A program made the position numbers and the translations under genes. Shown here in pieces: positions 6,398 to 24,666 of a stretch of 37,358 bases of DNA. Source of the stretch: a virus; the UHGV virus genome UHGV-0063828; one strand, written 5' to 3'. A model generated the notes under the pieces. The model worked only from the letters and a program-made list of their open reading frames with translations, was not told the origin of the DNA and made no database searches. The number at the start of each line of letters is the position of its first letter. Position 1 is the first letter of the stretch.

Positions 6398-6625
6398 TCA
6401 AACTCCGTTGATTGGTACAACCTCTCCACCGTCTACACGTATAAAGAACTCGACATTAAGTTTCTTCATACTTTTATAAAACTGGGCGGTGGAGATGCCC
6501 AGATCGTTTAATACTTTCTCTCTGCTTTCTTTACCTTTGCCAGCTTTGTAAAACTCGTAGCAAATGTATGCCAGTTGTTCACGATTAAAACGGGCAGGGC
6601 GACCGCGAGTAGCTTTAGTAGTCAT
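6398..6625 (-). CDS. Small DNA-binding-like protein (75 aa) sharing a C-terminal motif with the adjacent 200 aa protein
   Basis: Start placed at ATG with GGAGAAA SD (track start is a GTG); RGRP N-terminus; C-terminal KKLNVEFFIRVDGGEVVPI resembles [21 protein letters not shown] of the neighbour. Confidence 0.4.
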   Translation of the reverse strand: MTTKATRGRPARFNREQLAYICYEFYKAGKGKESREKVLNDLGISTAQFYKSMKKLNVEFFIRVDGGEVVPINGV

Positions 6626-6660
6626 AGTCATTTTCTCCAAATTAAAGTGAATGTTCACCT

Positions 6661-7263: not shown

Positions 7264-7350
7264 ACACCCTCCTTAAATCTTAATACCCGTATTTATCAAA
7301 AAATCAACAATTTAATAAATACCTTCATATTTCGTAATGAGGGTAATTAC

Positions 7351-9258
7351 ATGAAACTGATTTCTAATAAGGCAAAATTAAAAAAGATTCTTAAAAATGC
7401 AGCCAAATATATTACGCCACCGCCTAAGCTCCTTCCTTCTGAATGGTGCGAAGCGAATCTAACGCTAGTCGATGGTCCTCGTGCTGGGGATAAAGTTAAA
7501 TTACTGTCATTTCAGAAAGGCATGATTGATGCTCCTTTCCTTGAGAAGAAAAAGAAGTACGTTTTTTGTACGAGTGCGCAGATCGGAAAGACGACCATCA
7601 TGTCAGGGATCATGTTTAACCAGATGGCAAACGATCCGTGCAATATCATTATCGGGCAAAGTACCGCTAAAGAAGTGGCTATGTACTTGAATACTAAGAT
7701 CCGTCCTTCTATTGAAGCATGTCCGGCATTACAGGAAGTGGTAACAGATAAGAATGATCGTAATGCGGTAAACAACAATAACCAGATTCAGCTAAAAACA
7801 AACCATTTCCTTTACATGGTTTCTTTGACCAGTCCTTCAAGTTTGCGTGGGCGTACTGCCAAGTTAGGGATTGTAGACGAATGCGACGCAGCAACAATCA
7901 CCGAAGAAGGTTGTCCGGTGGCACTAACTGCAAACCGTTTAACTACCTTTGGTGATGAAGCTCGATTGATTGTTTCTAGTACCCCAACCAATAAGCTGGG
8001 AATCATTAACCAGCAATGGTTATCAAGTGATATGCGTATGTTTTTTGTTCCGTGTCCTCATTGCGGGGAACACCAGGTGATCGAGTGGGAAAACGTTCAA
8101 TTTGAATGGCGTAACATCGATGGTAAGAACTTACCCGATCCTGATACCGCTCGTTATATTTGCCCCCACTGTAAGAACGCATGGACCGAAGGGGAACGAA
8201 TCAGGGCAGTAGCACAAGGCGAGTGGAGAGCAACCCGTGAAAGTGAGGTAGCAGGATTCTGGATCAGCCGTCTGTATTCACCTTTCAGCACGATCCGCGC
8301 TTGTGTGGTTGATTTTAGTCATGCGTGGCAATCCTTTGATTTACAATCATTTTATAACACCGTGTTAGGCAAGGTATACGACGATCAGGACACGGCAGTA
8401 GAAGCAAATGAACTGGAACAACTCAAAACAGATGTTTCTATCGAGAATATCCCTGATGACGTAATTTTCTTGTGCTCAGGAATTGACCAGCAATTGGACC
8501 GCGCAGAATCTACCATCTTAGGTGTAGCGAAAGATAAGGTTTACATTCTGGATCACCGCAGCTTTTACGATCATAACTGTGAACGATACGAATCACCTGT
8601 TTGGGATCGTCTGGTTAACTTCAAGAAAACCAAATTCTATAACGTTAATGGTGAACGTGTGCCAATGCTCGCCAGCTTCCTTGATACATCGAACGGTCGA
8701 TTCACTCAAGCCGGATACCGTATTTGCGGCAAGTGGAAGAACCTACACGCTATCAAAGGTAGTTCATCTGGTAATGCTCCAGTGATTCCGGTTAAACCTA
8801 CCCGCACAGGTGGTCATGAATTGCTTATGTTGGGTGTTAACGTTGGGAAATCTGCTGTTCGTGAAATGTTGGTTAGAAACCTGAAAGACAATCCTCACAT
8901 TGGCTTAGAAATATCAGAAACCGTTCCTGATGATTATCTCGATCAGCTTTTGAGTGAATCCATCAAGCGTACTACTACTGGCGTGCGTTGGGTGAAAAAT
9001 CCAGGTAGTACCCGAAACGAGGCTCTCGACTGTCTGGTTTATAGCTATGCTGCTTCTCGCTACGTCCTTTCAAAAATGTCATGGGATAAACTCATTGCAA
9101 TGAAAGACAGCTTAAACCGTGTTGTCGAAGAATCCGTAAAAGCTCCTGAAACGCAATCTGACGAGCAAATCGAAGAAACTAAGCCAATCACACGACCGCA
9201 ACGTCAAAACATCGCCAGACGCCCAAATAGAGGCCGTAGCTGGGTAACATCGTTCTAA
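7351..9258 (+). CDS. Terminase large subunit, lambda gpA family
   Basis: P-loop region [10 protein letters not shown]; zinc-ribbon-like CPHCGEHQ...CPHC; GIDQQLDR and RNEALDC motifs as recalled from lambda gpA. Confidence 0.9.
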
Positions 9259-9330
9259 TAACTCGCCGTCCTTCGGGGCGGCTTACTCCTAAATATTGTT
9301 AATCCAATAACAATTAAATAAGGGGTAATT

Positions 9331-9825
9331 ATGAGTTTAGAACTAATTCCCTTAGTAATTCGTAAAGGCGAAAAAATCACGCTGGCGAATGAAGAGGGTG
9401 TAACAATTCAGGTAGGTAATAGCAAAGGCATTGTATATCAGGTCGATGATGCACCGGAAAATCACGAGATTAAAACGTTAGACTTTCCAGAAGGGAAGAT
9501 GACCATTGTTATTACTCTTGATGAAGAACTGGTATCCATGCAGGAATTAACTGTTTTACCAGTATTCGCCAAACAATCCAAAAAAGAACATCTGCGGGAA
9601 ACTATCGCCAAAATCGAGCAAGTTATTTTCGCCCGTTTATCTGGGGACGAAGCCGCATTATCTGCAATGACAATAAAAGGGAACTCATTCGCTTATGAGT
9701 CATTGGGTGTTCTCCAGACTCTAAAAGTCGATTATGAACGTCAACTGTCTAAATTAATTCAAGCCGAACGACGTAAACAGGGAATTAGCCCGATTAAAAA
9801 TATCAAATTACGTCTTACGCGATAA
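9331..9825 (+). CDS. Hypothetical protein between terminase and portal (164 aa)
   Basis: AAGGGG SD; position corresponds to the head-tail joining gene slot in lambda-like layouts. Confidence 0.45.
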   Translation: MSLELIPLVIRKGEKITLANEEGVTIQVGNSKGIVYQVDDAPENHEIKTLDFPEGKMTIVITLDEELVSMQELTVLPVFAKQSKKEHLRETIAKIEQVIFARLSGDEAALSAMTIKGNSFAYESLGVLQTLKVDYERQLSKLIQAERRKQGISPIKNIKLRLTR

Positions 9826-9835
9826 GGGGTAAAAC

Positions 9836-11347
9836 ATGTTTAATCTTTTTCGACGCAAAAAGGCGGTAGAAACTCCAGTTAAAACTAATCACCGCCAGCA
9901 ACAACAAAAAATCTTTATCGACAAACAAGTAGAAAAATTCCAGAAAGATTTGTCTAAGCGTTCTTTGGGCTTAGTTGGTGATCGCATTGATGGATCGCTT
10001 CAACAAGACACCATTACCGGAACCTTCAATAAGGCTCTCAAATCGAACGGTAAGCGCCTTTATGATCAGGGTCGTACTCTGGCCTTAAACACTTCCGTAG
10101 GCAGTCGCTACACGCAATACATCACCGATATGGTGGTCGGTGGTGGCCTAGATCCGAAGCCATCAATCGTTAAATCAAATGGCAAACTTGATAGCGCACT
10201 GAATAAGCAGATCGAGAATGCTTTCTGGAAGTGGGCGCAGAATGCTAAACGCTTCTCTCGCAATGGTCGTTTTAACTTCCGTGAACTGCTGGTAATGGCT
10301 GAACGTGAGCGCGTTATGGGTGGTGAGTGCTTCATAGTTTTAACCAAAGAAAACAATGAGTTAAATGTTTCTATCCTGTCTGCTGATAAGTGCGACTGGT
10401 CGCTTAGTCGTGAAATAAGCAAAGACCGCGCGATCTTTCAAGGGATTGAGTATGACGTAGAAACAATGCGCCCTGTAGCATACTGGTTTAGAAAAATCAA
10501 TCTACTGACTCAGACTTACACAGGTGATAACTATCGCGTAGATGCTTCGCAAGTATGCCATTATTATCAACCACTTGCGGCTGAATCTCTGCGTGGTGTG
10601 ACTGACTTCCTGCCAGTGATTAAGGATATCGCACATCAAGACGCATTCCGCGAAACTGCGATCGTCCAGAAACGTATTGCGGCTAGTTCTATGGGCTTTA
10701 TCGAACGTCCGAAAGATTCTGGTGACGATTTTGATACTGGTGAAGAGGATGAACAATACCAAGCGCCGGAAGTAGTACAGGACTTTGCACCGGGTACTAT
10801 TCAGGAATTGCCGGAAGGGGCAACGATCAAGAGCATCCAGGCGACGCAAAGCGGTGATGACTTTAACAGCTTCAATGATGCGATGTTTACTAGCGTATCA
10901 ATGGGCTTAGGCGTGTTCAAACAGGGCTTAACGGGAGATTGTTCACAGATCAACTACTCAGCCGCACGCTACGGCGAATTACTTCAAAGAACGCGCGTTA
11001 AAGCACTGCAAAACAAATTGATTGAAACAGTGGTGTCGCCCATTTTCGAAGCATATCTACGCCATTATTCCGCGCGTGGTGTTGTTCCGATTCGTATTAC
11101 TGCAATTCCACATATTATCGATAACACTACTATTATTCGTCCGCGTTTTGAATCCGTCGATCCATTTAAAGACGTAAGCGCCGAGATTGCTTTAATTGAT
11201 AACGGACTTAAATCACGTACTGCCGTTATATTGGAACGTGGTGATGATCCTGAAAAAGTATTCTCAGAGATTCAAGCCGAAAAGAGCGCACTAAATATTA
11301 TCGTTAATGGCGAGGGTGAAGAAAAAAATTCCCCAGCCGATCCCTAA
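9836..11347 (+). CDS. Portal protein, lambda gpB-like
   Basis: 503 aa directly downstream of the terminase; segment AMFTSVSMGLGVFKQGLTGDCSQINYSAARYG resembles lambda gpB as recalled. Confidence 0.8.
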   Translation: MFNLFRRKKAVETPVKTNHRQQQQKIFIDKQVEKFQKDLSKRSLGLVGDRIDGSLQQDTITGTFNKALKSNGKRLYDQGRTLALNTSVGSRYTQYITDMVVGGGLDPKPSIVKSNGKLDSALNKQIENAFWKWAQNAKRFSRNGRFNFRELLVMAERERVMGGECFIVLTKENNELNVSILSADKCDWSLSREISKDRAIFQGIEYDVETMRPVAYWFRKINLLTQTYTGDNYRVDASQVCHYYQPLAAESLRGVTDFLPVIKDIAHQDAFRETAIVQKRIAASSMGFIERPKDSGDDFDTGEEDEQYQAPEVVQDFAPGTIQELPEGATIKSIQATQSGDDFNSFNDAMFTSVSMGLGVFKQGLTGDCSQINYSAARYGELLQRTRVKALQNKLIETVVSPIFEAYLRHYSARGVVPIRITAIPHIIDNTTIIRPRFESVDPFKDVSAEIALIDNGLKSRTAVILERGDDPEKVFSEIQAEKSALNIIVNGEGEEKNSPADP

Positions 11348-11392
11348 TAACCAACGGGGGCGCAATGCCCCCAATTAATTAAAGGTGATTAA

Positions 11393-13402
11393 ATGCTTAA
11401 ATTTCGCCGCGATCTTAACAGTTACGGTGGAGTTATTAACGAAGGGCATAACGATCAATACGAATTTGAAATTGCTTTCTCCAGTACCCAGCCTTACCAG
11501 CGCCAATTCTGGGATGAGCAAAATCAAGAAATGGTGGTATTAGATGAAATTCTGGTACATACACCGGAAGCGGTTGATCTGTCTCGTCTGAATAATAACG
11601 CTCCGTTGCTGTTCAATCATAATTTCGATAATCACATTGGTGTAGTCTGCGACGCTCGAATCGATGCGGATAACGTAGGTCGTGCTCTGGTTAAATTCTC
11701 TAAGCATGGCACTTTGGCTAATGATATTCGCAATAAAGTCATTGAAGGTACGATGGAAAAAATTTCTGTCGGTTATGACATTAAAGAATATCACATCGAC
11801 TACACCAAAGGACAATTGATTGTTACTAAGTGGGCACCCTATGAACTCTCATTTGTCACCGTTCCCGCAGACGATACGGTCGGTTTAAATCGCTCTCTAA
11901 ATACTATCACAGTTAATTTGGAGGCTAAACGCGATATGACTAAAGAACAAATCGAAGAAATCAAAGAAGAACAAGAATCCGCTCAGGTTGAAGAAACTCC
12001 GGTAGAAGAAAATAAAGAACCGGAAGTTGAAGAAACTCAAGAGCGCCAAGTTGAAGAGAATAAAGAAAATGAAAATCTCGAAGACGGAAAAGACGCTGAA
12101 CATCCTGAAAGTGTTGATGATGATAGTTCAACTGTTCGGGAAACAGAAGAAGTAAAAGAAGAACGTGAAGCCGCTCCGGTTGAAGAAGAAAAAACCGAAG
12201 AAGTGGCTGAACGTTCCGAAGAAGACGAATTAGAAATTCGCGAAATTGCACGCGAACTAAATATTGATGACTCTGAATTAGCACGCGCATTGGCAATTAA
12301 AGACATGACGCCGGAAGCATTCCGCACTAAGGCACTAAATAACATTACCAATGCTCAACGTAATAACGAACAAATTAAGGACTCTAAAATGGAAAAAACT
12401 TTCGATCTTAATAACGTAATCCGCTCCCTGGTAGATGGCGACGTGCTCGGCGCTCATGAAGCTGAATATTCCGCAATGGCTGCTACTGCAACTATGCAGC
12501 GTGGTCGTGCTGCTCGCGGTGGCTCTGTATTCGTTCCTGCTGCTGCTATGCGTGCTGCTTCCGAAGGTAACACCAAAGCTACTCTGACTGCTGTTACTGA
12601 TGAAAAACTGCTGACTGAATCCTACATCGAAATGCTGCTTCCTGCTTCGTGTCTGGGTCGTCTGGGCGTGACCGTCCTGTCTGGTCTGAATAGCCCGATC
12701 GCTGTTCCGAAAATGACTGCTTCCAGCGTTGATGCATTTGGTTTTGTTGATGAAAACGGTGCTGCACCGGAAAGCAAAGCTGAATTTTCGAACGTGAAAA
12801 TGGCTCCGAAAACTTTTGCTGGTGGCAACCCGATCAGCCGTCAGTCTCTGAAAACTGTTCCGAATATTGCTACCCTGATCACTGATCATATTAACAAAGC
12901 TGTTCGCATCAAACTGGAACAACTGATTCTGTCTGACAAAGATAATACTCGCGGTCCGGCTGGTCTGGTTAAACAACTGGTAGATGGTGGTCGCGTTGCT
13001 AAGAAAACCGCTTTCAGCTACAAAGACCTGTTGAAAGAGATTGCCGCATTGACCGACGCTGGCGTTCCTGCTCAGGCGATCAAGTTCGCTATGAGTGGTG
13101 CAACTGCTGCTGAACTGGAATCTACCCCGAAATCTGATCGTGGTGACGCTCAAGGCTTCATTATGGAAAACGGCAAAATTGCTGGTTATGAAGTAGTTAC
13201 TTCTGGCGTTATTCCGGCAGATACGATCGTTCTGGGCGATTTCAGCGGCATTATCGTTGGGGAATGGGGAGGTCTTGAGCTAGATCTGGACGATTCGACG
13301 TACCGTGCCCAGTCGGCGATCGTGCCTCGTGTATGGCTGGATTTGGACTACGTTGTAGCACAGCCGGAAGCTCTGAAAGTTCTGAAAATTGGCGAAGAGT
13401 GA
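11393..13402 (+). CDS. Fused prohead protease / scaffold-like acidic linker / HK97-fold major capsid protein
   Basis: N-terminal ~180 aa prohead-protease-like; Glu/Lys-rich acidic middle; C-terminal ~337 aa capsid-like with strongly optimised codons; in-frame internal ATGs with SD at 11936 and 12389. Confidence 0.8.
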   Translation: MLKFRRDLNSYGGVINEGHNDQYEFEIAFSSTQPYQRQFWDEQNQEMVVLDEILVHTPEAVDLSRLNNNAPLLFNHNFDNHIGVVCDARIDADNVGRALVKFSKHGTLANDIRNKVIEGTMEKISVGYDIKEYHIDYTKGQLIVTKWAPYELSFVTVPADDTVGLNRSLNTITVNLEAKRDMTKEQIEEIKEEQESAQVEETPVEENKEPEVEETQERQVEENKENENLEDGKDAEHPESVDDDSSTVRETEEVKEEREAAPVEEEKTEEVAERSEEDELEIREIARELNIDDSELARALAIKDMTPEAFRTKALNNITNAQRNNEQIKDSKMEKTFDLNNVIRSLVDGDVLGAHEAEYSAMAATATMQRGRAARGGSVFVPAAAMRAASEGNTKATLTAVTDEKLLTESYIEMLLPASCLGRLGVTVLSGLNSPIAVPKMTASSVDAFGFVDENGAAPESKAEFSNVKMAPKTFAGGNPISRQSLKTVPNIATLITDHINKAVRIKLEQLILSDKDNTRGPAGLVKQLVDGGRVAKKTAFSYKDLLKEIAALTDAGVPAQAIKFAMSGATAAELESTPKSDRGDAQGFIMENGKIAGYEVVTSGVIPADTIVLGDFSGIIVGEWGGLELDLDDSTYRAQSAIVPRVWLDLDYVVAQPEALKVLKIGEE

Positions 13403-13493
13403 AATAACGAAGAATTGCCGGAAGAAATTCCGGTAGTTACGGCGAAAGCCACAGCTAAAAAGGTGGGACGTCCACCGAAAGCAAAATAATAAT

Positions 13494-13522
13494 TAGCCCT
13501 GCCTAACGGTGGGGCTTTTTTG
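13494..13522 (+). terminator. Intrinsic terminator after capsid gene
   Basis: AGCCCTGCC-TAAC-GGTGGGGCT hairpin with wobble pairs followed by TTTTTT. Confidence 0.6.
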
Positions 13523-13551
13523 TATGTAAATACTCCATAAAGGGGGTAACT

Positions 13552-13842
13552 ATGTTCAAATTATCAGAATCACAATTATCAAGAATGTTCCGAAGTGCTC
13601 CTGTATTTTCGGTGGAAGGTGGTAAATCAATTCGTGCTTATCATGAAATTACTACTACCGACGAACAAGGGGTAATGACAGAGACAGAATTTTTATTTTG
13701 TCGTGAGGGAGACTTAAAGCAGGGTGATATTGTCATTGTAGAAAATCAGCGTTTCAAAGTTCAATACGTTAAGCGCAATGGTGACAATACAACTGATTGC
13801 TTTATCACTCTGGCAGGGGGTACACATGCTCGCTACCGTTAA
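13552..13842 (+). CDS. Putative head-tail connector / head completion protein (96 aa)
   Basis: AAGGGGG SD; position immediately after capsid gene and terminator. Confidence 0.45.
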   Translation: MFKLSESQLSRMFRSAPVFSVEGGKSIRAYHEITTTDEQGVMTETEFLFCREGDLKQGDIVIVENQRFKVQYVKRNGDNTTDCFITLAGGTHARYR

Positions 13843-14248
13843 TAATATGCCGAGACTGAAAATCAAACGCGCCTTGCAAGATATTATCGAACAAGATTTA
13901 GGTCTGGCTTTAAACGTAGAACAAACTCAGCAAGGCTTTAGTGATGATGTGGTTTGTTGGATCACCGGAATGAATGAGACTTACACTAGGGTCCGTGGTG
14001 GTAATGCAATGCAAGCTGAATGCGTTATCGAAATGCAATTGTATTCTCAGATTCATGAAACCAAAATTCATGAGGGTATTTGCCAGATAATCCAGATTCA
14101 GCCGGATAACCCACGTTTTAAAGATTTGGGCTTCGCTATTTCAGATATCACTCCAGTAGCTTCTAATACCGATTATGACGATGATTCTAGTGATGGGGGT
14201 ATCGTTGGGACACTTAGCCTTAAATTTTCTTATCTAGCGCGTTTTTAA
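13826..14248 (+). CDS. Putative head-tail connector protein (141 aa)
   Basis: Start placed at ATG 13826 with GGGGG SD, overlapping the previous gene end; positional inference only. Confidence 0.4.
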   Translation: MLATVNNMPRLKIKRALQDIIEQDLGLALNVEQTQQGFSDDVVCWITGMNETYTRVRGGNAMQAECVIEMQLYSQIHETKIHEGICQIIQIQPDNPRFKDLGFAISDITPVASNTDYDDDSSDGGIVGTLSLKFSYLARF

Positions 14249-14257
14249 GGGGTAATA

Positions 14258-15091
14258 ATGAATATTACACAAGATAACTTAGACATTTTCACGGGGTCGC
14301 ATGTTGAAGTCTCCGTGTCTACTATGGTGGATAACCAGCCGGACTTTTTCGATCCTGCATTTAGTCCTATCGAGAACATCGCAGCATTCCCGACGATAAC
14401 CGAATCTACAGATATCCAGACGTTAGAAGAGTATGATCAGGACGCTACGGGTAAACTTGCTGGCTATCGTAAACTGGAACCGACAACACTCACGTTAAAC
14501 CGTGTTCTGGATGACGAACATCAAGCAATGTTGATGAAAGCGGTAGAGGATAAAACACCTTTACGCTTCCGTATGTTCTATGTTGTGAACTCTGGCTATA
14601 GTGCTGCTAACACTGGTTACTATGTCATCTATGATGCTTACGTCACATCACATAAAACCCGTGGTAGTGATAACAAAGCTGTAACACTGGAATTTAAACT
14701 TGAACCAGATGGCGGGATTCTAGCAAGGGGTATAGCGACCGAGGGAAAAATTCTGCGACAAGGTGATTTTGGTATTGGTGCTGGTGTACATCCATTCACT
14801 GGTCCGATTGATAGTGAAGCATTAGCCGGAAACCGTTTCGTAACTTATCAGGGATCGAGCGCATCTAATCCATTTAGTGCTGATACTTCACTAATTCACG
14901 TTCAACCTAATGAAGATGGTGGATGGCAATTAACTTGCACCGCTTCCGGCGCACCACGTTTACGAGTTCGCACAGTCCAGAAAGACGGTAATTCGGGATG
15001 GGTGAAAGTGTATTCCACAGAAGAAAAACCGACACCAGCCGAGATTGAAGCCGTTTCTATCCATGACCGGATCGACTTCGGGGAATACTGA
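14258..15091 (+). CDS. Tail- or fibre-associated structural protein (277 aa)
   Basis: AAGGGG SD; C-terminal EEKPTPAEIEAVS motif also present inside the downstream tail fibre (GDKPTPAEIGAYS); ordinary codon usage argues against it being the major tail protein. Confidence 0.5.
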   Translation: MNITQDNLDIFTGSHVEVSVSTMVDNQPDFFDPAFSPIENIAAFPTITESTDIQTLEEYDQDATGKLAGYRKLEPTTLTLNRVLDDEHQAMLMKAVEDKTPLRFRMFYVVNSGYSAANTGYYVIYDAYVTSHKTRGSDNKAVTLEFKLEPDGGILARGIATEGKILRQGDFGIGAGVHPFTGPIDSEALAGNRFVTYQGSSASNPFSADTSLIHVQPNEDGGWQLTCTASGAPRLRVRTVQKDGNSGWVKVYSTEEKPTPAEIEAVSIHDRIDFGEY

Positions 15092-15164
15092 TTGCTTCTC
15101 TAAATAAAACATGACGCGGGAGGTTAACGCCTCCCTTATTCCTGTTTTATAGTGAGGTGATTCG

Positions 15165-18100
15165 ATGCAGTCGATCCAATTTAAACGAACAAATGTTTCT
15201 GGCAAAAAACCAACGCCGGAACAATTACAGGTCGGTGAGGTAGCAATCAACCTTAAAGACCATGTTATTTTTACCAAAGACCGAGATCATGAAGTAGTTC
15301 AAATCTCTGTTTCTCCTGAAACTCACGCGGCACTAGAATCTAAAGTTGATGCTAACAAACAAGAACTGGATAGCACAATTGCAGTAAATGACCGCAATAT
15401 TCACGCTAAAGTAGATGAAATTAAACAAACTACTGATGCAACCATCGCAGCAAATCACGCAGAAATTAACAATAAAGTTGATGTAATTAAACGCGAAACC
15501 GACGCGACAATCGAGGCCAATAAAAATAAAGCTGCTTCCGATCTTGCTGGTGTTAAAGCTGAATTGTCGGATACCATCAACGCTAATAAAAATGCGGCTG
15601 CTGTAGCAACTCAGGAACTGGACACCCGCATCAATAAAAAAGTTGATGATATTAAATCCCGTACCGATGCAACCATCGCAAGCAATGACAAAGCAATCAA
15701 TGACAAAGTTGATTTGATTAAGGCAGAAACTGACCGCACTATCGCAGCAAATAAAGTCTATGCGGAAAATCAGTTAACTGACACCTACAATAACCTTACT
15801 GGTGTGATTGCAGCCAATAAGCAAGAGGCAGCGGATAACGTCGCGGCATTAACCCGTGATGTTGAAGCCAAAAATACCGCAATTCATAGCAAAGTTGACA
15901 ATAACAAGTCTTACACTGATTCTGAATTGGCACGTTTAGAAAGCCGTATTGATGCAGCCGATGGATCGAGTGATGGCAAGTACATCAAAAAGCACGTAAA
16001 CACTTACACTGATGGCTATTTGCTATCTAAGACCGCAAACTATTTTGATGATCCGGGTGCGCGTAATCTTGATTATTTTGGTGCATTCCGCATGAATGAC
16101 CTGGCGGGTCATATTGCAATGATCTTGCATGTTCCGCATCCATCTGGTGTTAATCATGCTCGTGGCTTTGAGTTCACTTATGGGTCCAATCCACATGCTA
16201 CTGTAAGAACATACGGCTATGATGAATTGGGTCATTTGGCATATTCTCACCGCATGTATCATGAAGGCGATAAACCAACTCCGGCTGAAATTGGCGCATA
16301 TTCGAAAGCAGAAATTGACCGGATGTTCCAGAAGACCATCAACTTTGGTGTAGAAACTGGATGGTTTAAAATTGCTACCGCCTTTATTCCGCAAAATGAT
16401 GGACGTAGCTTGAAAATTAGATTGATTGGTGGAAATGGGTGGAACGTAGGCCAAACTGGACAATGTAATATTATTGAACTTGTTATAAGGACTAGCAACG
16501 GTTCGCCTAAAGGAATTAACTTTGTTGCGTATCATCATGTTTCTGGTTACGAGAATCAATTTTGTGCCATTAATACAAGTGATGACACTTATGATATCTA
16601 TGCATATTACTTCGAATTTACTAATATGGTAATGGCTGAATATCAAGCGTCTACCGGTGTTAATTTAACTGTACTTGATCGACCTGAATATGTAGGCGAA
16701 AAACCTGTAGCTGATCATATCTATGATGCATATACAATACACTCCTTTAACAGTTTCAGTAACCGTGGAACGTTAAATTTTGCTGGAAACCATCAAGGTC
16801 AATATGATATTGAGCATTTGAACGAACAACCGACAAATGCTAAGAAAATGCTGCGTCGCTTCCGTAGTTCTGCTCCTGCCACTATCTGGCACGAAAGTGT
16901 TGATGACCAAAATTATCGTCTTGCTACTGGATATAGCGATGTAAACCCACAATTATTGCTTTCTGCTGTAACCGGGTTACATGTCAAGAGATTAACGTTG
17001 GATGGTGGTGTCACTGGAAATTCTGGTATTGATATTCGTCGAGGACCAAACGAATCAAGCCATTTTAATTTTATGGATTATCGCACTGGTCAAGATGTTC
17101 GTAATGGCTGGTTTGGCTTCGGTGATGGTCAGACCAAAGATTTTATTTGGTGGAACGATAACGGTCAAAACTCGATAAACTTGATTGAAAACGGTGAATT
17201 GCATATTACTGGCGGTAAAGGCCAGAAAATTGTAATGAATAGCGAAGTTGCATTATCTGAAAATGCTCGTTTGGCTGTCAAAGGCGGTAACTATGGCTTA
17301 ATTTTTAGAAATGATGGATCTGACTTCCATATTCTCACCACAGGTCTCGGTGATTCCTTTGGACCGTGGAATACTCGTAGACCATTCAGCTATAATTTTG
17401 CGGATGGTGGATTGGATCTAGGTGGTACTGAAACCGCTCGTTGTTTGCACCTGGGAATTGATGGTAGCACTCGTCTCGAAGACAACCTTTTATTTAAATC
17501 TGGTTCTCGTCAATCTATGGACTATATGGAACTCGTCCATTGGGGTAACAGTAATACAGGACGCAACAACGTTTTGAGTATGCGGGATTCCAAAGGATTT
17601 TTAGCCGAATTTGAACGCACCGGAAACAATAGCATTAAAACTAGATTCTTTGGTGAAACCTTCACTGACGGTACATTATACCTAAATCAGATGAATAATA
17701 GCTCTGAACGATTCTCTATCAACAATTGGGGAAATTCAGAAGTTGGACGCGCGGCAGTAATGGAAATCGGTGATTCCAAAGGTTATCACTTCTATACGGA
17801 ACGTAGAACAGATAACAGTTTGGCGTTTGATGTTGCTGGCGCTTTTACTGTGCATGGACCTAACGGAATAACCATCAAAAACTCAGCGGGTGCACGCCAT
17901 ATCTGGTTTAGAGATGATAGCGATGCAGAAAAGGCTGTTATCTGGGCTACAGATGATGGTCTTTTACATATTCGCAATAACTACGGTGGACATTTTAGTC
18001 ATCACTTCCAGGGTGCAATGATTAAAGTGGGAGAGCGTGTTCCTTATGCCGCAGATCAAGGACTTATCCGTGGTGAGGTTTCTGGTGGTGCATATGTTGC

Positions 18101-18683
18101 ATGGAGAGACCGACCTGCTGGTTTGTTGGTTGACTGTCAACAAAGCGTTGATAGTGCTCATGCTATTTGGAAAGCGGTTGATTGGGGGCGTAACTACATC
18201 GCTGCTATGGACGTTCATTGTCCCGGTGATAGTAATAATACTGCGGCAGCGGTTCTTCATGTTCAGGGTGCTGATTATCAATTCCATGCAAGTGGAGAAT
18301 TTCATGCCACTGGTAACGGAAACTTTAACGATGTTTATATTCGTTCCGATCGTCGTCTGAAAATTAATGTTGAAGACTACGAAGAAAATGCGGTAGATAA
18401 GGTAAATAAACTCAAAGTTAAAACCTACGATAAAGTTAAATCACTTTCTGATCGCGAAGTCATCGCACATGAGATTGGTATTATCGCACAGGATTTACAA
18501 GAGGTATTACCGGAAGCTGTTAAAACCGCAAAAATTGGTGGTCTTGATAACCCAGAAGAAATTTTAACAATTTCAAACTCCGCAGTGAACGCGCTTTTAA
18601 TTAAAGCGGTCCAAGAAATGAGCGAAGAAAATAAACTTCTTCGTGAACGTCTTGCTGCTATTGAGGCTAAATTATTTGGTTAA
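15165..18683 (+). CDS. Side tail fibre with C-terminal intramolecular chaperone (peptidase S74-like) domain
   Basis: N-terminal periodic KVDxIKxxTDATIAxN repeats (4 copies); last ~112 aa SDRRLKINVEDYEENAVDK...LAAIEAKL resembles the self-cleaving chaperone of T5 L-shaped fibre and endosialidases. Confidence 0.85.
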   Translation: MQSIQFKRTNVSGKKPTPEQLQVGEVAINLKDHVIFTKDRDHEVVQISVSPETHAALESKVDANKQELDSTIAVNDRNIHAKVDEIKQTTDATIAANHAEINNKVDVIKRETDATIEANKNKAASDLAGVKAELSDTINANKNAAAVATQELDTRINKKVDDIKSRTDATIASNDKAINDKVDLIKAETDRTIAANKVYAENQLTDTYNNLTGVIAANKQEAADNVAALTRDVEAKNTAIHSKVDNNKSYTDSELARLESRIDAADGSSDGKYIKKHVNTYTDGYLLSKTANYFDDPGARNLDYFGAFRMNDLAGHIAMILHVPHPSGVNHARGFEFTYGSNPHATVRTYGYDELGHLAYSHRMYHEGDKPTPAEIGAYSKAEIDRMFQKTINFGVETGWFKIATAFIPQNDGRSLKIRLIGGNGWNVGQTGQCNIIELVIRTSNGSPKGINFVAYHHVSGYENQFCAINTSDDTYDIYAYYFEFTNMVMAEYQASTGVNLTVLDRPEYVGEKPVADHIYDAYTIHSFNSFSNRGTLNFAGNHQGQYDIEHLNEQPTNAKKMLRRFRSSAPATIWHESVDDQNYRLATGYSDVNPQLLLSAVTGLHVKRLTLDGGVTGNSGIDIRRGPNESSHFNFMDYRTGQDVRNGWFGFGDGQTKDFIWWNDNGQNSINLIENGELHITGGKGQKIVMNSEVALSENARLAVKGGNYGLIFRNDGSDFHILTTGLGDSFGPWNTRRPFSYNFADGGLDLGGTETARCLHLGIDGSTRLEDNLLFKSGSRQSMDYMELVHWGNSNTGRNNVLSMRDSKGFLAEFERTGNNSIKTRFFGETFTDGTLYLNQMNNSSERFSINNWGNSEVGRAAVMEIGDSKGYHFYTERRTDNSLAFDVAGAFTVHGPNGITIKNSAGARHIWFRDDSDAEKAVIWATDDGLLHIRNNYGGHFSHHFQGAMIKVGERVPYAADQGLIRGEVSGGAYVAWRDRPAGLLVDCQQSVDSAHAIWKAVDWGRNYIAAMDVHCPGDSNNTAAAVLHVQGADYQFHASGEFHATGNGNFNDVYIRSDRRLKINVEDYEENAVDKVNKLKVKTYDKVKSLSDREVIAHEIGIIAQDLQEVLPEAVKTAKIGGLDNPEEILTISNSAVNALLIKAVQEMSEENKLLRERLAAIEAKLFG

Positions 18684-18722
18684 TTAAAATAGCGGGGAGA
18701 AATCCCCGCTAAGGATTCTTAT

Positions 18723-19019
18723 ATGGGATATTGGGTAAGTAGTGAAATTAATACTAAAATCGATGCTTTAAAATGGCATGTATTTGATATTCCTAACGGC
18801 TATGGTACTGCTCGTGCTGGTGTCGCTGTAATGCGTCATAATGCTGGTGGTGGGTGGTCTGATGCACATATTAACGTAGATGGTTTGACCGTTGCTCGTC
18901 GTCGTGGTGGGACCAATTGGGGATCTACTATAAATTCGTTTGTTCCTGCTGGCTGCACCGTCTCCTTTGGTTTAGGGGGTGAAGGTGGTGTTGAATATTT
19001 TAAATTCATGGAGTTTTAA
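18723..19019 (+). CDS. Small Gly/Trp-rich protein, paralog 1 of 3 (FDIPNG family)
   Basis: AAGGA SD; shares W..FDIPNGW and C-terminal T-V-S-F..G...YFKF pattern with the next two ORFs. Confidence 0.6.
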   Translation: MGYWVSSEINTKIDALKWHVFDIPNGYGTARAGVAVMRHNAGGGWSDAHINVDGLTVARRRGGTNWGSTINSFVPAGCTVSFGLGGEGGVEYFKFMEF

Positions 19020-19021
19020 TT

Positions 19022-19327
19022 ATGGCTGGATGGATAAATCAAAGAATGTCAAACGCTATTAGTATTTGGGCTAATGGTGGATATTTTGATATCCCCAACG
19101 GCTGGGTTACTGATTCATGCGGAATTGTTTTTGCTCATATGGAAGCCATTAACGGTGCTGGTGATCTTGATTCTGAATTGGCTGTAAATGGATTGATTGA
19201 ATCAGGTCATCATGCTGGTGATGCTGGGAGTTGGGGCGCTAGTTCTTTAGTTGGCGCTGGTGCTACCGTTAGCTTTACATTGGGTAAAGGTAGTTTGCAT
19301 TATTTCAAATTCAGGAGAATGCACTAA
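19022..19327 (+). CDS. Small Gly/Trp-rich protein, paralog 2 of 3
   Basis: Starts 3 nt after paralog 1 stop; conserved FDIPNGW core. Confidence 0.6.
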   Translation: MAGWINQRMSNAISIWANGGYFDIPNGWVTDSCGIVFAHMEAINGAGDLDSELAVNGLIESGHHAGDAGSWGASSLVGAGATVSFTLGKGSLHYFKFRRMH

Positions 19328-19629
19328 TGGCATTTTGGGTAGATGGCGCTTTGGGGACTAGGGCGGGTAAAGCAAATCAAGGATGGTTTGATATTCCTAA
19401 CGGTTGGACAGCCGACGCTTTCGGGACTATTTCATTCTGTGTTCATTCTTCCGGTGGTGGCGGCGGTGACTCTGAATTGTTTATTCATGGTTTTTGTGTT
19501 TCTGGAAGCCATAAGGGTCATGATTGGGGACAGATCCATTCTTGTATTGCACCGCAAGGAGCAGTAATTACAGTTAGCACAAATAGGGGGATCGCTCATC
19601 TTCGTTATAGACGTTTGAGCAATCGCTAA
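19327..19629 (+). CDS. Small Gly/Trp-rich protein, paralog 3 of 3
   Basis: TAATG stop/start overlap with paralog 2; AGGAGA SD; conserved FDIPNGW core. Confidence 0.6.
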   Translation: MAFWVDGALGTRAGKANQGWFDIPNGWTADAFGTISFCVHSSGGGGGDSELFIHGFCVSGSHKGHDWGQIHSCIAPQGAVITVSTNRGIAHLRYRRLSNR

Positions 19630-19683
19630 ATAAATAGAATTACGGGTATGTACCCTATTGTTTAAAATAGAAGGAAAAGAATA

Positions 19684-20154
19684 ATGACTACTAAACTTGA
19701 TATTTTTTCTGGTGGCCTCGTTGGTCTGTTTCTGCAAGAAGACGTAAGCAATAAAGACCTTGATGCTGAAACCTATCTGGAAATCCCAGAATGTGCGGCT
19801 TTCCCGGAAACTGGTGTAGAACGTTCTACTATCGATGTTCCTAACTTCGGTGGTCCGTATAACCGTAAGCTGGTTGGTCGTATGTCTGTACCGGATATCG
19901 AACTTTCGATCAACTACATGCCGGGTAACGAAGTACACGAAAAACTGATTAAAGCAACCGAAGACGGTAAGCGCGTACAGCTTAAAATTGCTTACTACAT
20001 CGACGCTACGAAAAAATCTGGTGTGCACATCGCTTATAACGGCTTCCTGTCTAAAACTACCATGACTGGTGGTGAGGATGCTGTAGTAGGCCGTACCTTC
20101 ACCTTTGTAGTAGATGGTGCTCCGGTTAAACAAGCTGTTTTCCAGAAAGTCTAA
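19684..20154 (+). CDS. Major tail (tube) protein
   Basis: 156 aa, strongly optimised codons like the capsid domain; precedes chaperone pair and tape measure; strong tetraloop terminator immediately downstream. Confidence 0.65.
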   Translation: MTTKLDIFSGGLVGLFLQEDVSNKDLDAETYLEIPECAAFPETGVERSTIDVPNFGGPYNRKLVGRMSVPDIELSINYMPGNEVHEKLIKATEDGKRVQLKIAYYIDATKKSGVHIAYNGFLSKTTMTGGEDAVVGRTFTFVVDGAPVKQAVFQKV

Positions 20155-20163
20155 TATTATCTA

Positions 20164-20188
20164 GCCATCCTTCGGGGTGGCTTTTTTG
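20164..20188 (+). terminator. Intrinsic terminator with UUCG tetraloop after major tail protein gene
   Basis: GCCATCC-TTCG-GGGTGGC followed by TTTTTTG. Confidence 0.7.
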
Positions 20189-20236
20189 TTTCCAATTCTA
20201 AATAAACATATCTAATTAACTTAAGAGGAAACAAGA

Positions 20237-20545
20237 ATGAATATTAATGAAATGTTAGCCGCACTCTCTCCGAAACGTGAATCTTTGACCATCGGTGGAT
20301 TTACTTTCTATGCTCGCCCTATGTCAGTAAAAGAATTTAACGAACATGTTTTCAATACCGATAAAGAAGATCGTGATGAACGTTCTATTCTTCGTTGTAT
20401 TGAAGATGAAGACGGTAAGCCGGTATTTGAATCTATGGAACAAGTTAAGGCACTGTATACTAACGTCCGCAGTGAATTAATCGGTTTGGTTGCTCAAGCA
20501 TCATTGATGCAAGATCCGGCAGTAATTGAAAACGAGGTAAAGTGA
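20237..20545 (+). CDS. Tail assembly chaperone (gpG-like position)
   Basis: AAGAGGAA SD; ~100 aa acidic protein between tail tube and tape measure. Confidence 0.6.
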   Translation: MNINEMLAALSPKRESLTIGGFTFYARPMSVKEFNEHVFNTDKEDRDERSILRCIEDEDGKPVFESMEQVKALYTNVRSELIGLVAQASLMQDPAVIENEVK

Positions 20546-20916
20546 ACCCGCTTCTGAATTTCTACTTTCGGCAAATGATGCGATCGGGGCTTAGTAAAGA
20601 TGAAATGGATAATATGCCAATCACTCTGTTTTGGAAATTATACATTTTCGACACCTACTTAGAACCACAAAGCCCCGCGTTTCATGATATGCAGAATGCG
20701 ATGTTGCAATATTCCATGTATATGACGTCGCAAGGAATGACACGCGAAACTGCACGTAAACTCAAGCCTAGCCAATTCCAATTAATTAGAGAAGAAAAAC
20801 TCTTTAAAACTAAAGAAGAACTGGAAGAAATTGCACGCAAGAAAGAAGAAGAACGTAAAGCGGCAATGATGAACATGTTCGATCCATCTTTGCTTGAGAA
20901 ACTCAGAAGCGGTTAA
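20542..20916 (+). CDS. Second tail assembly chaperone (gpT-like position)
   Basis: GTG start overlapping upstream stop (GTGA) with GAGG SD; in -1 frame relative to the upstream gene. Confidence 0.55.
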   Translation: MNPLLNFYFRQMMRSGLSKDEMDNMPITLFWKLYIFDTYLEPQSPAFHDMQNAMLQYSMYMTSQGMTRETARKLKPSQFQLIREEKLFKTKEELEEIARKKEEERKAAMMNMFDPSLLEKLRSG

Positions 20917-20927: not shown

Positions 20928-23357
20928 ATGACAAGACATATAGTAACAATGGAAGGGGATAATAGCGGCTTAAGGAAAAGCACAAATCAAGCAATTGATA
21001 TGCTTGATAACCTTGCGGATAAGGCATCTAAACTTGATTTTTCTGGTGGCTTATCTAGTTTAGGTAGCTCTCTCAGGGGATTGGGTGGATCTGCTAGTCT
21101 TGCCGTTGGTGGTGTTCTAGGTGTCACAGGGGCAATGGTTGGACTGGTTAAAGTTGGTGCTGATTACGTTAAACAGTATTCAGAAGTATCTAAGGCGACC
21201 GGACTCTCGATTGAATCCCTTCAAAGACTAGAAAAGGAATTTTCTGGCACTGGCCTAACAGTTGAAAAATTTGGTGATATCAACAAAGACACCTTAGATA
21301 AAATGGGGGATGCATGGGCTAACGGTGGTGGTATTGCCGATGACTTAGAATCGGTTGGGCTTAAGTTAGAAAACTATGCTCACTTCATGACAGATCCGCA
21401 AGGTGGTATGAAAGCGGCGATCCAAGTGTTCTATGACATGAAGAAAGCCGGAAAATCAATGGCTGAAATCAAATTCATGATGGAATCTTTAGCCAGTGAT
21501 TCAAGCCATATGACCAGCCAGCTTGAGAAATATAATAGTGCTCAAGAAGCGATGACCGCTATCCAGAATCAATCTGTTAAAGTCACCGAAGAAAACGCAA
21601 AGAAATTTGATAAATTCTCTAAGAATATCGATACTTTGGAAAATAACCTGAAAGGCGCAGCTATGACCATTTCTGGTCCTTTGGTTGATAGCTTAAACTG
21701 GTTATTTGACTGGTTTAATATTGATTGGGAAAAGAGTTCTCTATTCAGGGCATTAGACCGACTGAATAAAGAAGGTGCGACCGCTACGGGTGGTATTCTT
21801 AACGCCAACCATAAAGACGCTCAAAAGATTATTGACAAGTACAATAAAGAAAAGCGTTGGAATAATCTGGCAGATTGGGAAAAGGCCGCGATCCGTGGTG
21901 CTGGTGTCGATCCTCGTACTGCTGGCTTTGATGTAGAAGGATTTAAGAAACGTTTTGGTGGGTCTTATAAGAAAAATGGTGCTCTGATTGTCGTAGATGC
22001 TGGTGAACATCTGACACGCAAGGCAGATCCTAACACTGATTTAACTCTACCAAATAAACCAGTAAGACCAGAATCATTGGGTAAATCTGGCAACGAGAAG
22101 AAAGCCGAGGAAGAAGCCAAAAAGAAAGCGGAAGAGGCAGCTAAAAAGGCTAAGGAAGCCGCAGAAAAAGCACAGAAAGCACGCGAGGATGCAATCAAGC
22201 GACTGAATGCACTTGATGTTAAATTGCAAGGGCAAGTTGCAGCGTCTATCACTTCTCAAAATAGCCAGTTGCAAAACAGCTTAAAAGATGTGAACGACGC
22301 GTTAGCTCTGGGCTTAATCTCTCAGGAAGACGCAGCCGCGAAACGCCAGGCGCTAATCGATCAGAATACTGAAAACGTATACAAAATGGTTTTAGGTGCT
22401 GATCCGATTGATGCTCTGAATGCTTTAACACAATTGCAACAAATCAGGGACAACGAGCTAGAAAGCCATAAACGTTTACTTGATGGTAAAGCTATCTCCT
22501 ACGAAGAATATATGCGTCGTGTGAACGATACCGAGCAAAACTATTCTCAGATTGAAAATTCTTTACAGGGAATGGATGGTTATAAAACCAATCAATTAAC
22601 TAGTGGTTATGATTATCAAGACTCAAATAATCCGTTTGCTAAATTTAATGCAATCGATAAAGAGAAATCGGATGCTGAACAAGATTATAAGACCGATAAA
22701 CTCAAGATTGACGGTATTAATGATCCGGCTAAACGGATGGAAGCATTAGAAAAACTCAATGAAAACCATCAAAAACGGATGGCTGCAATTGAAAAGAAAT
22801 ATGCTGATGCTCGCCAGTCAATAGCCGATGATATGTATGGCGGTTTTGCTGCTGCAATGACTCTCTTCGGGCAGGAAAACACTAAAGCTATGCAGATGGC
22901 TTTCACTGCTCATAAAGCATTCTCCATTGGACAAGCGACGGTGAACATGTGGACGGCTGCTACCGATGCATGGAACGATCCGACCAACGTAACCACAGGT
23001 CAAAAAATCGCGGCTGCTGCATTGGCTGTTTCTCAGAACATGGGGAGCATCGCAAACATCAAGTCTACTAACGTTAGCGGTATGGCTCATGATGGTATTG
23101 ATAACATCCCTCGTGAGGGTACATGGTTGCTTGATAAGGGTGAACGAGTAGTTGATCAGCGTACTAACGGTGATTTGAAAGACTTCCTTGCTGCTCAAAA
23201 ATCAGGCGGTGGTAACTCTCAGCCGATTGAAGTTAATGCGCCTTTGAACATTAACGGCAACGTTAATAGCTCAGACAAGATGGTCATGGATGCTATCAAA
23301 CGTCACGCTAAGTTAGTTGCTCAGGCGGTAGAAGACGCACAACGCCGTAAGATGTAA
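20928..23357 (+). CDS. Tail tape measure protein
   Basis: 809 aa, long helical low-complexity regions (KKAEEEAKKKAEEAAKKAKEAAEKAQKAREDAIK); canonical position after chaperone pair. Confidence 0.85.
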   Translation: MTRHIVTMEGDNSGLRKSTNQAIDMLDNLADKASKLDFSGGLSSLGSSLRGLGGSASLAVGGVLGVTGAMVGLVKVGADYVKQYSEVSKATGLSIESLQRLEKEFSGTGLTVEKFGDINKDTLDKMGDAWANGGGIADDLESVGLKLENYAHFMTDPQGGMKAAIQVFYDMKKAGKSMAEIKFMMESLASDSSHMTSQLEKYNSAQEAMTAIQNQSVKVTEENAKKFDKFSKNIDTLENNLKGAAMTISGPLVDSLNWLFDWFNIDWEKSSLFRALDRLNKEGATATGGILNANHKDAQKIIDKYNKEKRWNNLADWEKAAIRGAGVDPRTAGFDVEGFKKRFGGSYKKNGALIVVDAGEHLTRKADPNTDLTLPNKPVRPESLGKSGNEKKAEEEAKKKAEEAAKKAKEAAEKAQKAREDAIKRLNALDVKLQGQVAASITSQNSQLQNSLKDVNDALALGLISQEDAAAKRQALIDQNTENVYKMVLGADPIDALNALTQLQQIRDNELESHKRLLDGKAISYEEYMRRVNDTEQNYSQIENSLQGMDGYKTNQLTSGYDYQDSNNPFAKFNAIDKEKSDAEQDYKTDKLKIDGINDPAKRMEALEKLNENHQKRMAAIEKKYADARQSIADDMYGGFAAAMTLFGQENTKAMQMAFTAHKAFSIGQATVNMWTAATDAWNDPTNVTTGQKIAAAALAVSQNMGSIANIKSTNVSGMAHDGIDNIPREGTWLLDKGERVVDQRTNGDLKDFLAAQKSGGGNSQPIEVNAPLNINGNVNSSDKMVMDAIKRHAKLVAQAVEDAQRRKM

Positions 23358-23406: not shown

Positions 23407-23967
23407 ATGTTCAAATCAAAGAATATTAAAATCACAGATTTTACTCTTAAATCAAAACAGCCTTTCTTCAAGGCGCAATCTATCTCCGGTAAGTTCCAGC
23501 GTCGCTTTACTGGCATCCATTTTTACGAAGCAGAATTTACCGCGAATTACATGGCTCAGGATATTAACGAAGTAAAAGAATTTGTAGCACGTCACCTTTT
23601 TGGTCGTCCTTTTAGTGTGCCACTGTCTTACTTTTCAAAATATACAGGTGATGTACGCCAGATGGTTACGGCTGCTGCTGGTACTGCTCGCGGTGGGCGT
23701 AAGGTGAGAATCTCCAACTTCACCGGAACACTGAAAGCGGGAACTATCATCCAGTTTGAGAACCACAAGAAAATCTACACGATCACCGAAGATGTGAAAT
23801 CAGGTGGTGAAATGAAACTCTTCCCTAACTTGCGTCAGAACGTCCTGGCGGGTGAGGTGATCAAGTATCAGAACGTAGAAGGTGAATTTGTTCTCAAAAC
23901 TGAAAATATCGATTGGAAGATCGCCCAGATTGGCAAGATGAAATTTGAATTAGTGGAGAATGTATAA
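23407..23967 (+). CDS. Minor tail protein (tail-tip, gpM-like position)
   Basis: First gene after tape measure; its only SD-like run (GGGGG) lies in the 3' arm of an upstream hairpin. Confidence 0.55.
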   Translation: MFKSKNIKITDFTLKSKQPFFKAQSISGKFQRRFTGIHFYEAEFTANYMAQDINEVKEFVARHLFGRPFSVPLSYFSKYTGDVRQMVTAAAGTARGGRKVRISNFTGTLKAGTIIQFENHKKIYTITEDVKSGGEMKLFPNLRQNVLAGEVIKYQNVEGEFVLKTENIDWKIAQIGKMKFELVENV

Positions 23968-24620: not shown

Positions 24621-24666
24621 TCCCTTCTCCCTAAGCCTAGTAAATAACAGCATGGAGGTATTCAAC

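Follow-up and report, generated by a model that had tools for sequence, protein, structure and literature searches.

The locus studied here raises a question of gene order: why does a side tail fibre gene lie in the middle of a siphovirus morphogenesis operon, ahead of the gene of the tail tube? The stretch concerned, the UHGV virus genome UHGV-0063828, is 37,358 nucleotides (nt) long and is called here, over its whole length, the window. Its morphogenesis operon, of the lambda/HK97 style according to the list of open reading frames (ORFs), Pfam and PHROG, occupies ~7.3-30.9 kb of the + strand, as do all the genes and domains located below. In the middle of it lie an ORF of 277 amino acids (aa) at 14258-15091 and one of 1172 aa at 15165-18683. 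A preliminary description of this DNA had seen in these two ORFs a side-fibre module in an unusual place, and our analysis supports it: both exist, and both are upstream of the tail-tube gene (19684-20154) and not after the J-like central fibre gene (25086-28862). The description had also set them between head-tail connector genes and the tube gene, which is right on the left side, where connector-type genes of 96 and 140 aa precede the pair, and wrong on the right side, where the fibre gene and three ORFs that are not connectors (18723-19629) separate the 277-aa gene from the tube gene. What it had missed altogether is that the 277-aa protein is a paralogue of the tail-tube protein itself. 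We consider it likely that the module consists of a ring of tube-fold anchor proteins and of a joint of the gp36/gp37 type, which carries a distal fibre of the Krischvirus type.

The first step of the answer concerns the N-terminal half of the 277-aa protein, called hereafter the anchor. The family phrog_158 ('major tail protein') matches its aa 11-154 (E 8.9e-9), and its tube-like domain (aa 7-159, nt 14276-14734) aligns colinearly and end to end with the 156-aa tube protein of the same window (22% identity, E 1e-9). An AlphaFold2 model, built as a single chain from 19 family members, reached a predicted local distance difference test score (pLDDT) of mostly ~70-93 over aa 13-160, with dips to ~50 at aa 51-70. 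When this domain was submitted to Foldseek, the best PDB match was lambda gpV (8k36_A, E 2e-7); the tube proteins of YDC107, 80alpha, monocin, Sf11 and SPP1, and Hcp, were found as well (E 2e-7 to 1e-3 range of the top hits). Pfam gave no tube-family match for the 277-aa protein, and a sequence search of the PDB with the anchor family profile gave no match. By alignment and by predicted fold, the anchor thus appears to descend from an old duplication of the tube protein of this phage. The role of major tube subunit belongs to the 156-aa protein (phrog_158, E 8.3e-20; weak match to Pfam Phage_TTP_12), named 'phage tail tube protein' in the RefSeq records of its counterparts in relatives: it is this protein, and not the 277-aa one, that holds the major-tube position, directly upstream of the chaperone pair and of the tape measure gene.

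For the anchor family, a search of 5.8 billion proteins collected 84 clusters, whose members are called 'hypothetical' or 'phage tail protein' and whose named sources are Escherichia coli, Shigella, Salmonella, Providencia, Edwardsiella and Proteus. The scan of species-representative genomes with the anchor profile gave no confirmed locus, so that the taxonomic range of the anchor rests on these source names. Complete anchors measure 275-281 aa in Enterobacterales, and longer variants reach 465-698 aa. Between genera, the protein keeps 52-96% identity and has invariant residues. We also considered that the 277-aa protein might be a truncated remnant of a fibre, and rejected it: six genera keep the length of 275-281 aa, and the conservation of the C-terminus extends to its final residue.

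The C-terminal half of the anchor (aa 160-277, nt 14735-15088) is of a fibre type and, to judge from its sequence, is a connector of the gp36 type. The protein ends in ...KPTPAEIEAVSIHDRIDFGEY (last 28 aa, ...KVYSTEEKPTPAEIEAVSIHDRIDFGEY), and in the alignment of the family this end is invariant, reading Y(S/T)xxEKPT(P/A)xE(I/V)xAVxxxDxIDFG(E/T)(Y/F)-stop. In the long anchor variants, extra modules are inserted before this same end, each of them closing with ...VY(S/H)xxNKPTxAxxGA.... The very last residues, IDFGEY in the window (aa 272-277, nt 15071-15088), form what we call the plug, an end that is conserved in anchors and in gp36. Indeed, an end of the form (I/V/M/Q)D(F/L)Gx(Y/F) is found in all anchors, in a 198-aa fibre segment of Proteus and in the gp36 proteins of Krischviruses G37-3 and KFS-EC, which finish with ...YHEGHKPTPAEVGAVPLNAVIDFGTF, as well as in that of T4, which finishes with ...SVQDFGYY. 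By BLASTP, the last 28 aa of the anchor are 46% identical to the C-terminus of G37-3 gp36 (E 3e-5). A 482-aa variant (P0083) aligns over its aa 227-482 with gp36 aa 212-496 (E 1e-16), and phrog_16472 is matched to its very end by both proteins (E 0.009 for the 277-aa protein and 7e-20 for P0083). As for the Krischvirus partner, G37-3 gp36 matches Pfam Phage_T4_gp36 with 27.6 bits for a cut-off of 26, as T4 gp36 also matches, and RefSeq names this protein across Krischviruses as the gp36 hinge or distal connector.

The gene that follows encodes a gp37-type side fibre, which matches phrog_1699 ('long tail fiber protein distal subunit') with an E value of 1.5e-135. Pfam recognizes in it only Peptidase_S74, Gp34_trimer and, in the helical repeat segment, a weak Apolipoprotein match. 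The fibre begins with MQSIQFKRTNVSGKKPTPEQLQVGEVAINLKDHVIFTKD, a pattern that matches the N-termini of gp37 from T4, G37-3 and KFS-EC (IQFKRT...GEVAINL), and its N-terminal 70 aa match positions 6-49 of phrog_1699 (E 9e-19). This region (aa 1-50, nt 15165-15314, MQSIQFKRT...GEVAINLKDHVIFTKD), which we call the socket, would make the fibre N-terminus of the gp37 type and not a collar of the lambda Stf type. A head of the IQFKRT type is also carried by every gene downstream of an anchor in the loci examined. The complementary elements of the two proteins would thus be the ...IDFGEY tail of the anchor and the IQFKRT...GEVAINL N-terminal domain of the fibre, which match the ends of gp36 and the starts of gp37, respectively.

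Behind the socket comes a lineage-specific helical repeat segment (aa 51-284, nt 15315-16016), marked by the motif KVDxIKxxTDATIxAN. The preliminary description had counted here four periodic repeats of ~22 aa. The four copies are real (aa 82, 104, 159 and 181, plus two weak ones at 60 and 243; scores of 52-60 against a shuffle maximum of 43), but they are not tandem 22-aa units: they form two pairs spaced by 22 aa, of a 16-aa motif, inside a 77-aa duplication. At the other end of the fibre, its expectation of an S74-type intramolecular chaperone is confirmed by Pfam (PF13884, aa 1061-1120, E 1.5e-14, 54.4 bits for a gathering cut-off of 22). Proteins of the S74 family carry a Ser/Lys catalytic pair five residues apart at the start of the domain, and cleave themselves. 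In the window, the SDRRLK site provides Ser1061 and Lys1066, five residues apart, and it is also present in the fibres of G37-3, KFS-EC and Salmonella. From this site we expect that the chaperone (aa 1061-1172, nt 18345-18680), a C-terminal piece of 112 aa, should cut itself off at Ser1061.

If anchor and fibre are joined in this way, their ends should pair in other phages too, and this comparison was made on 25 diverse IMG/VR loci that the profile of the anchor family had retrieved. In 23 of them, an anchor of 277-559 aa ends with (I/V)D(F/L)Gxx and the next gene opens with xQFKR(T/S)...GE..IN...D. The remaining two loci encode anchor and fibre as a single polypeptide: one fusion has 1518 aa (L052), of which aa 12-270 are an anchor (43% identity) followed directly by a fibre that ends like gp37 and has an S74 site, the other has 673 aa (L069), and in both loci the tube gene comes directly after the fusion gene. 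To our mind, nothing argues more strongly than these fusions for a single physical structure that comprises both the tube-like domain and the fibre. The functional link that had been suspected between the two proteins is thus supported, by the pairing as by the fusions. The same tail and head are found in Salmonella, in Proteus, in a metagenome lineage and in the DCP80 record. The Proteus mirabilis prophage (L008, 10001-13516) encodes three consecutive proteins, i.e., one of 275 aa ending EEIDFGEF, one of 198 aa running from MKSIQFKRT to LIMDFGTF and one of 675 aa starting ...IQFKRT; tail and head thus meet at both joints, so that the same joint is used twice. The window fibre is 42% identical to the 198-aa protein over its aa 1-190 and aligns over aa 286-388 with aa 72-177 of the 675-aa protein; it looks like a fusion of the two.

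The DCP80 record itself (L003, PQ671644, 'Escherichia phage DCP80', 140,978 bp) is labelled Gaprivervirus, and at 1-17000 it contains a siphovirus-type module related to the window, with terminase, portal, a protease-capsid fusion, a 698-aa anchor-fibre, a 745-aa fibre, the tube gene and the tape measure. Such a module is unexpected in a T4-like genus, and the record may be chimeric or misclassified.

From these elements a mechanism can be proposed. The N-terminal domain of the anchor would assemble into a tube-type ring that is part of the tail, and each fibre trimer would be held, at its first ~50 residues, by the C-termini of three anchors. A hexameric ring would then have room for two fibres, by analogy with Ur-lambda, where 4 trimeric fibres are borne by 12 collar domains through flexible linkers (PMC12617516). 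Beyond the joint, the 230-aa helical repeat spacer would lead to a shaft and tip of the Krischvirus gp37 type, and the C-terminal S74 chaperone would drive the folding of the trimer before cutting itself off. As the joint would be that of T4, everything distal to it could be exchanged with T4-like phages of the same hosts.

The model of such a joint is the distal half-fibre of T4, in which trimeric gp36 binds the N-terminal region of gp37 (PMC3004832). The window shares with it the (I/V/Q)DFGx(Y/F) end upstream and the IQFKR(T/S)...GELAINL start downstream, and its gp37-type shaft is 78% identical in amino acids to Krischvirus gp37. It differs in that the T4 joint hangs from gp35 and gp34 on the baseplate of a contractile tail, whereas here the gp36-like part is cut to ~115 aa and fused to a siphovirus tail-tube domain. 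Indeed, the ORF list of the window contains no sheath, gp34 or gp35 gene, and the operon is of the siphovirus type. On the other hand, the module resembles the Stf of Ur-lambda as an accessory side fibre on a non-contractile tail, with ring domains linked to trimers and a distal part related to T4 gp37 (PMC12617516). Lambda side fibres, however, sit at the tail tip (PMC12617516), and Stf has its own N-terminal collar, which wraps around the outside of the gpV/gpM junction, and a gene that follows J; in the window, the ring domain is tube-like in fold and comes from a gene ahead of the tube gene, as a rule distinct from that of the fibre. The C-terminal S74 domain, with its Ser...Lys pair five residues apart, is like that of T5 pb1 and of the endosialidase type; T5 pb1 attaches through a p132 collar. 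Tube-fold proteins that form single rings are represented by T4 gp48, gp54 and gp3 and by the tail-completion and terminator proteins of T5. To our knowledge, none of these tube paralogues carries a fibre connector.

Several points weigh against this proposal. The gp36 similarity of the 277-aa protein itself is short and weak (28 aa in the pairwise alignment, and phrog_16472 at E 0.009), and the stronger link runs through its longer relatives; Pfam gp36 (PF03903) matched neither the 277-aa protein nor its C-terminal 115 aa, even at E 1. The AlphaFold2 confidence is low over aa ~160-277 (pLDDT 32-60), and the connector domain (aa 165-277) is therefore without structural support. The arrangement of a hexamer facing trimers is an assumption made by analogy, and that the gp36 C-terminal tail makes the contact with gp37 is deduced from the pattern of conservation and from a fibre whose chains run parallel, N to C. 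Anchor and fibre genes adjoin each other, so their co-occurrence and co-variation could partly reflect linkage. Moreover, insertion sequence (IS) elements lie in or next to the fibre gene of some E. coli copies, so that functional modules are not to be expected in all of them. Finally, the tail terminator of the lineage was not found, and the anchor could therefore hold the terminator role itself.

This last point leads to the position of the ring. We favour the head-proximal end of the tail, with prospects that are about even, on the basis of gene order and of the lactococcal nps precedent; a ring next to the distal tail protein is a somewhat less probable placing, and a ring protein scattered along the tube has a small share. 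The head-proximal position is shared with a version of our model in which the 277-aa protein would be the tail terminator or tail-completion ring as well as a neck collar, and the fibre a neck whisker. In the lactococcal 936 and P335 phages, the nps gene, immediately upstream of mtp, gives rise to a collar with whiskers, and immunogold electron microscopy placed its product at the neck, between capsid and tail (PMC4759559). In the window, only two small connector-type genes precede the anchor (96 aa, 13552-13842, weak match to Pfam Phage_attach of the gpFII type, E 1.3e-4; 140 aa, 13826-14248, no family or PDB match), and no other terminator came to light: neither the 140-aa protein nor one of 115 aa has BLASTP similarity to R4C gp018, and searches of PDB, PHROG and Pfam for a terminator gave no result. 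However, the best sequence and fold matches of the 277-aa protein are tube proteins and not terminators. Moreover, the scheme of roseophage R4C, where an adaptor is encoded between terminase and portal and is followed by stopper and terminator (PMC10276861), can be filled here without it. The 164-aa 'head-tail joining' protein (9331-9825, phrog_5774, E 1.4e-8), encoded between terminase and portal genes, has the same position as gp004, the structurally defined adaptor of R4C, and the roles of adaptor, stopper and terminator could go to the 164-, 96- and 140-aa proteins, although such assignments are weak. We therefore hold a terminator role of the anchor to be rather unlikely.

Less probable again is that the 277-aa protein would be a minor, decorated tube subunit, co-polymerising along the whole tail, which would then bear fibres or their stubs over all its length. 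Lactococcal TpeX, gp17.1* of SPP1 and lambda gpV with its immunoglobulin (Ig) domain are examples of decorated tubes. The anchor, a paralogue of the tube protein, shares its fold, the canonical tube protein of some relatives is extended to ~251-254 aa, and tube proteins with C-terminal decorations, such as the adhesion domains of TpeX, are well known (PMC6669499). Nevertheless, the known decorated forms contain the tube domain of the major protein itself, by frameshift or from the same gene, whereas the two tube domains of the window are only 22% identical, which suggests distinct ring contacts. In addition, a fibre of ~1060 aa (chaperone removed) would be sterically costly on many rings, and the 1518-aa fusion would have to be produced on a large scale. 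NPS and TpeX also differ from the ring that we propose: the ring domain of NPS is BppU-like, TpeX has, by a frameshift, its tube domain in common with the major protein, and neither has a gp36/gp37 joint.

A further explanation, the one put forward in the preliminary description, was that the pair is a cassette acquired by recombination, in which the motif KPTPAEI(E/G)A would be an attachment element or a site of domain exchange. The motif is real: KPTPAEI is common to both proteins (anchor aa 257-263, nt 15026-15046; fibre aa 370-376, nt 16272-16292) and is unlikely by chance, as any common 7-mer between the two shuffled proteins appeared in 6 of 5000 shuffles. Around it, anchor 191-267 and fibre 298-380 are 31% identical, with a weak E value of 0.002. 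Its two copies, however, differ at 5 of 7 third codon positions; conservation is therefore at the protein level and there is no nucleotide repeat. A DNA repeat can thus be ruled out, the amino acids alone being conserved. The motif also recurs, several times, in Krischvirus gp36 and in long anchor variants, where it closes modules, and the homologous position of Krischvirus gp37 reads KPSPSEL. These occurrences suggest that KPTPAEI is a generic junction closing fibre modules, and not a docking site. As for exchange, the boundary with T4-like phages (nt ~16028) is ~80 codons upstream of the motif, which does not fit an exchange element.

The gene order speaks in the same direction. The order connectors, anchor, fibre(s) and tube gene is kept in every relative examined, down to 27-40% identity (E. 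coli, Salmonella, Proteus, metagenomes and IMG/VR loci), and two small connector-type genes are conserved upstream of the anchor in all of them. The slot is therefore a trait of the lineage (Enterobacterales), and the idea of an insertion specific to this phage does not hold, since the order is universal among the relatives examined. Among isolated phages, the Cronusviruses R4C and RcCronus come nearest in capsid protein (~31% identity); in them, the connector genes are followed by the tube gene without an anchor/fibre pair; the pair was therefore added at a deeper point. Of the cassette, the mosaic nature of the fibre stands, while the recent insertion of two genes is largely refuted by synteny, an addition being visible only against the distant Cronusvirus. 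We consider the cassette as first described very improbable.

The mosaic of the fibre deserves to be described for itself. The window is 85.1% identical in nucleotides to the gp37 locus of the virulent Krischvirus G37-3 over 3641 nt (16029-19645, i.e., the fibre from aa ~288 onwards together with the three small ORFs), and 96.5% identical to that of KFS-EC over 681 nt that include the chaperone and the first small ORF (window 18310-18990; L002 8172-8848). At the protein level, fibre aa 285-1170 and G37-3 gp37 aa 71-953 share 78% identity, and the recombination junction with T4-like phages falls at fibre aa ~285-288. In close E. coli relatives, the N-terminal part, shaft, tip and chaperone segments reassort independently. 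Most likely, on these sequence identities, the distal block of the fibre was recently exchanged with virulent T4-like phages. The view that the module is a decaying remnant, with a fibre that the functional virion no longer uses, might appeal to the IS elements in two strains, but is scarcely credible given that the six ORFs concerned are all intact in the window, that the anchor is conserved across genera with its invariant residues and that 96.5% nt identity to the working fibre locus of a virulent phage implies recent use.

The insertions were located in E. coli relatives. An IS3 interrupts the fibre gene of strain L3Cip3, and an IS421 lies just downstream of the fibre gene of strain 14EC017, between it and the small ORFs. 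Others are an IS1 in the J-like gene and a NUMOD3-domain gene between the hub and DUF6950 genes (insertion coordinates L004 11802-13030; L005 12928-14040, 20096-20866 and 21742-22439). Close copies (93-95% nt identity) occur as prophages in the chromosome of 59 of 5426 complete E. coli genomes (~1%).

The three small ORFs behind the fibre gene travel with the fibre in T4-like phages, and the module therefore runs to ~19645. They encode proteins of 98 aa (18723-19019), 101 aa (19022-19327) and 100 aa (19327-19629), which are mutual paralogues with the common motifs FDIPNG(W/Y) and (Y/H)(F/L)(K/R)(F/Y) (FDIPNG...YFKF in the first). In G37-3, ORFs of the same sizes follow gp37 in the same order, the middle one with 98% aa identity. 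Among 50,697 phage records, small ORFs are present in three, all T4-like, with three copies each; KFS-EC has one chimeric small ORF, apparently born by deletion between paralogues 1 and 3. Every annotation calls them hypothetical, neither Pfam nor PHROG has a family that matches them, and a profile hidden Markov model search of 1.84 billion representatives returned 18 matches, of which three were weak and inside very large repeat proteins; Pfam, applied to two of these, gave no functional lead. In these large proteins (P0106, P0110 and P0112, 1118-3972 aa), the profile matches repeated segments, one protein having HYR, Ig and fn3 domains with a type IX secretion system (T9SS) sorting signal and another DUF4347.

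A C1q/TNF-like jelly-roll fold is tentatively predicted, from a single-chain model, for the small ORFs, preceded in the second by a predicted N-terminal helix, and from the matches in large proteins this jelly roll may also be a repeat in bacterial surface proteins. The small ORFs co-occur with the chaperone subtype that ends ...RLAAIEAKL(F)G (at least 74% identity), and not with a particular tip domain, a co-occurrence that adjacency alone could explain. A role as tip-specific adhesins is thereby weakened, the ORFs tracking the chaperone subtype and not the tip. Head-tail connectors, as which they had also been considered, are ruled out: the ORFs are paralogues of one another, follow gp37 in G37-3 and are missing where the fibre end differs. 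The most attractive reading, for us, is that the three may join into a heterotrimer that serves the fibre end as an accessory. Where the fibre of a relative ends otherwise, a different accessory gene of 168-293 aa is present, whose product starts MA..(V/I)PGWIGSSAV (L027 12111-12617, L053 11530-12300, L055 11547-12356 and similar). It sits between the fibre and tube genes or between the tube gene and the chaperones, and possibly encodes a fibre assembly factor or an adhesin.

The rest of the operon is ordered as follows. Upstream of the module are the large terminase (7351-9258), the portal (9836-11347) and a protease-capsid fusion (11393-13402). Downstream of the tube gene come two chaperone-type genes (20237-20916), the tape measure protein (20928-23357), the Dit, hub and DUF6950 genes (23407-25086) and the 1258-aa J-like tip protein with the receptor-binding end of lambda gpJ. 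After the latter, a 227-aa ORF (29434-30117) has a weak match to a 'minor tail protein' family (phrog_1924, E 0.001); a role as a small tip fibre, as for R4C gp017, is possible, but BLASTP gave no clear similarity. Strong terminator-like hairpins with T runs were observed at 13495-13516, directly after the capsid gene, and at 20163-20182, directly after the tube gene, capsid and tube being the two most abundant structural genes. Over 13300-20300, 14 terminator-like sites were counted for 5.1 expected from shuffles.

Each element of the module is known in kind: tube paralogues, the gp36/gp37 joint, S74 chaperones and the exchange of fibres between unrelated phages. In the literature that we searched, we found no description of a siphovirus tube-fold anchor with a gp36-type connector, nor of the triplet of small ORFs. 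More broadly, it is possible, and we advance it tentatively, that a tube paralogue serves as a universal socket for T4-type half-fibres, pooling the fibres of temperate lambda-like and virulent T4-like phages, and that the heterotrimer of small ORFs would be a fibre partner of a new class, be it a cap, an adhesin or an assembly factor, encoded where T4 has gp38. The odd position of the fibre gene would find here its explanation: the fibre follows its anchor, and the anchor is a duplicate of the neighbouring tube gene. A short joint defined by sequence (an IDFGx(Y/F) tail and an IQFKRT...GELAINL head) is apparently used by T4, by Krischviruses and by enterobacterial prophages. If this is true, it would provide a concrete route by which host-range determinants pass between temperate siphoviruses and virulent T4-like phages, and a ready rule of design by which T4-type fibres could be fitted to non-contractile tails or to tailocins.

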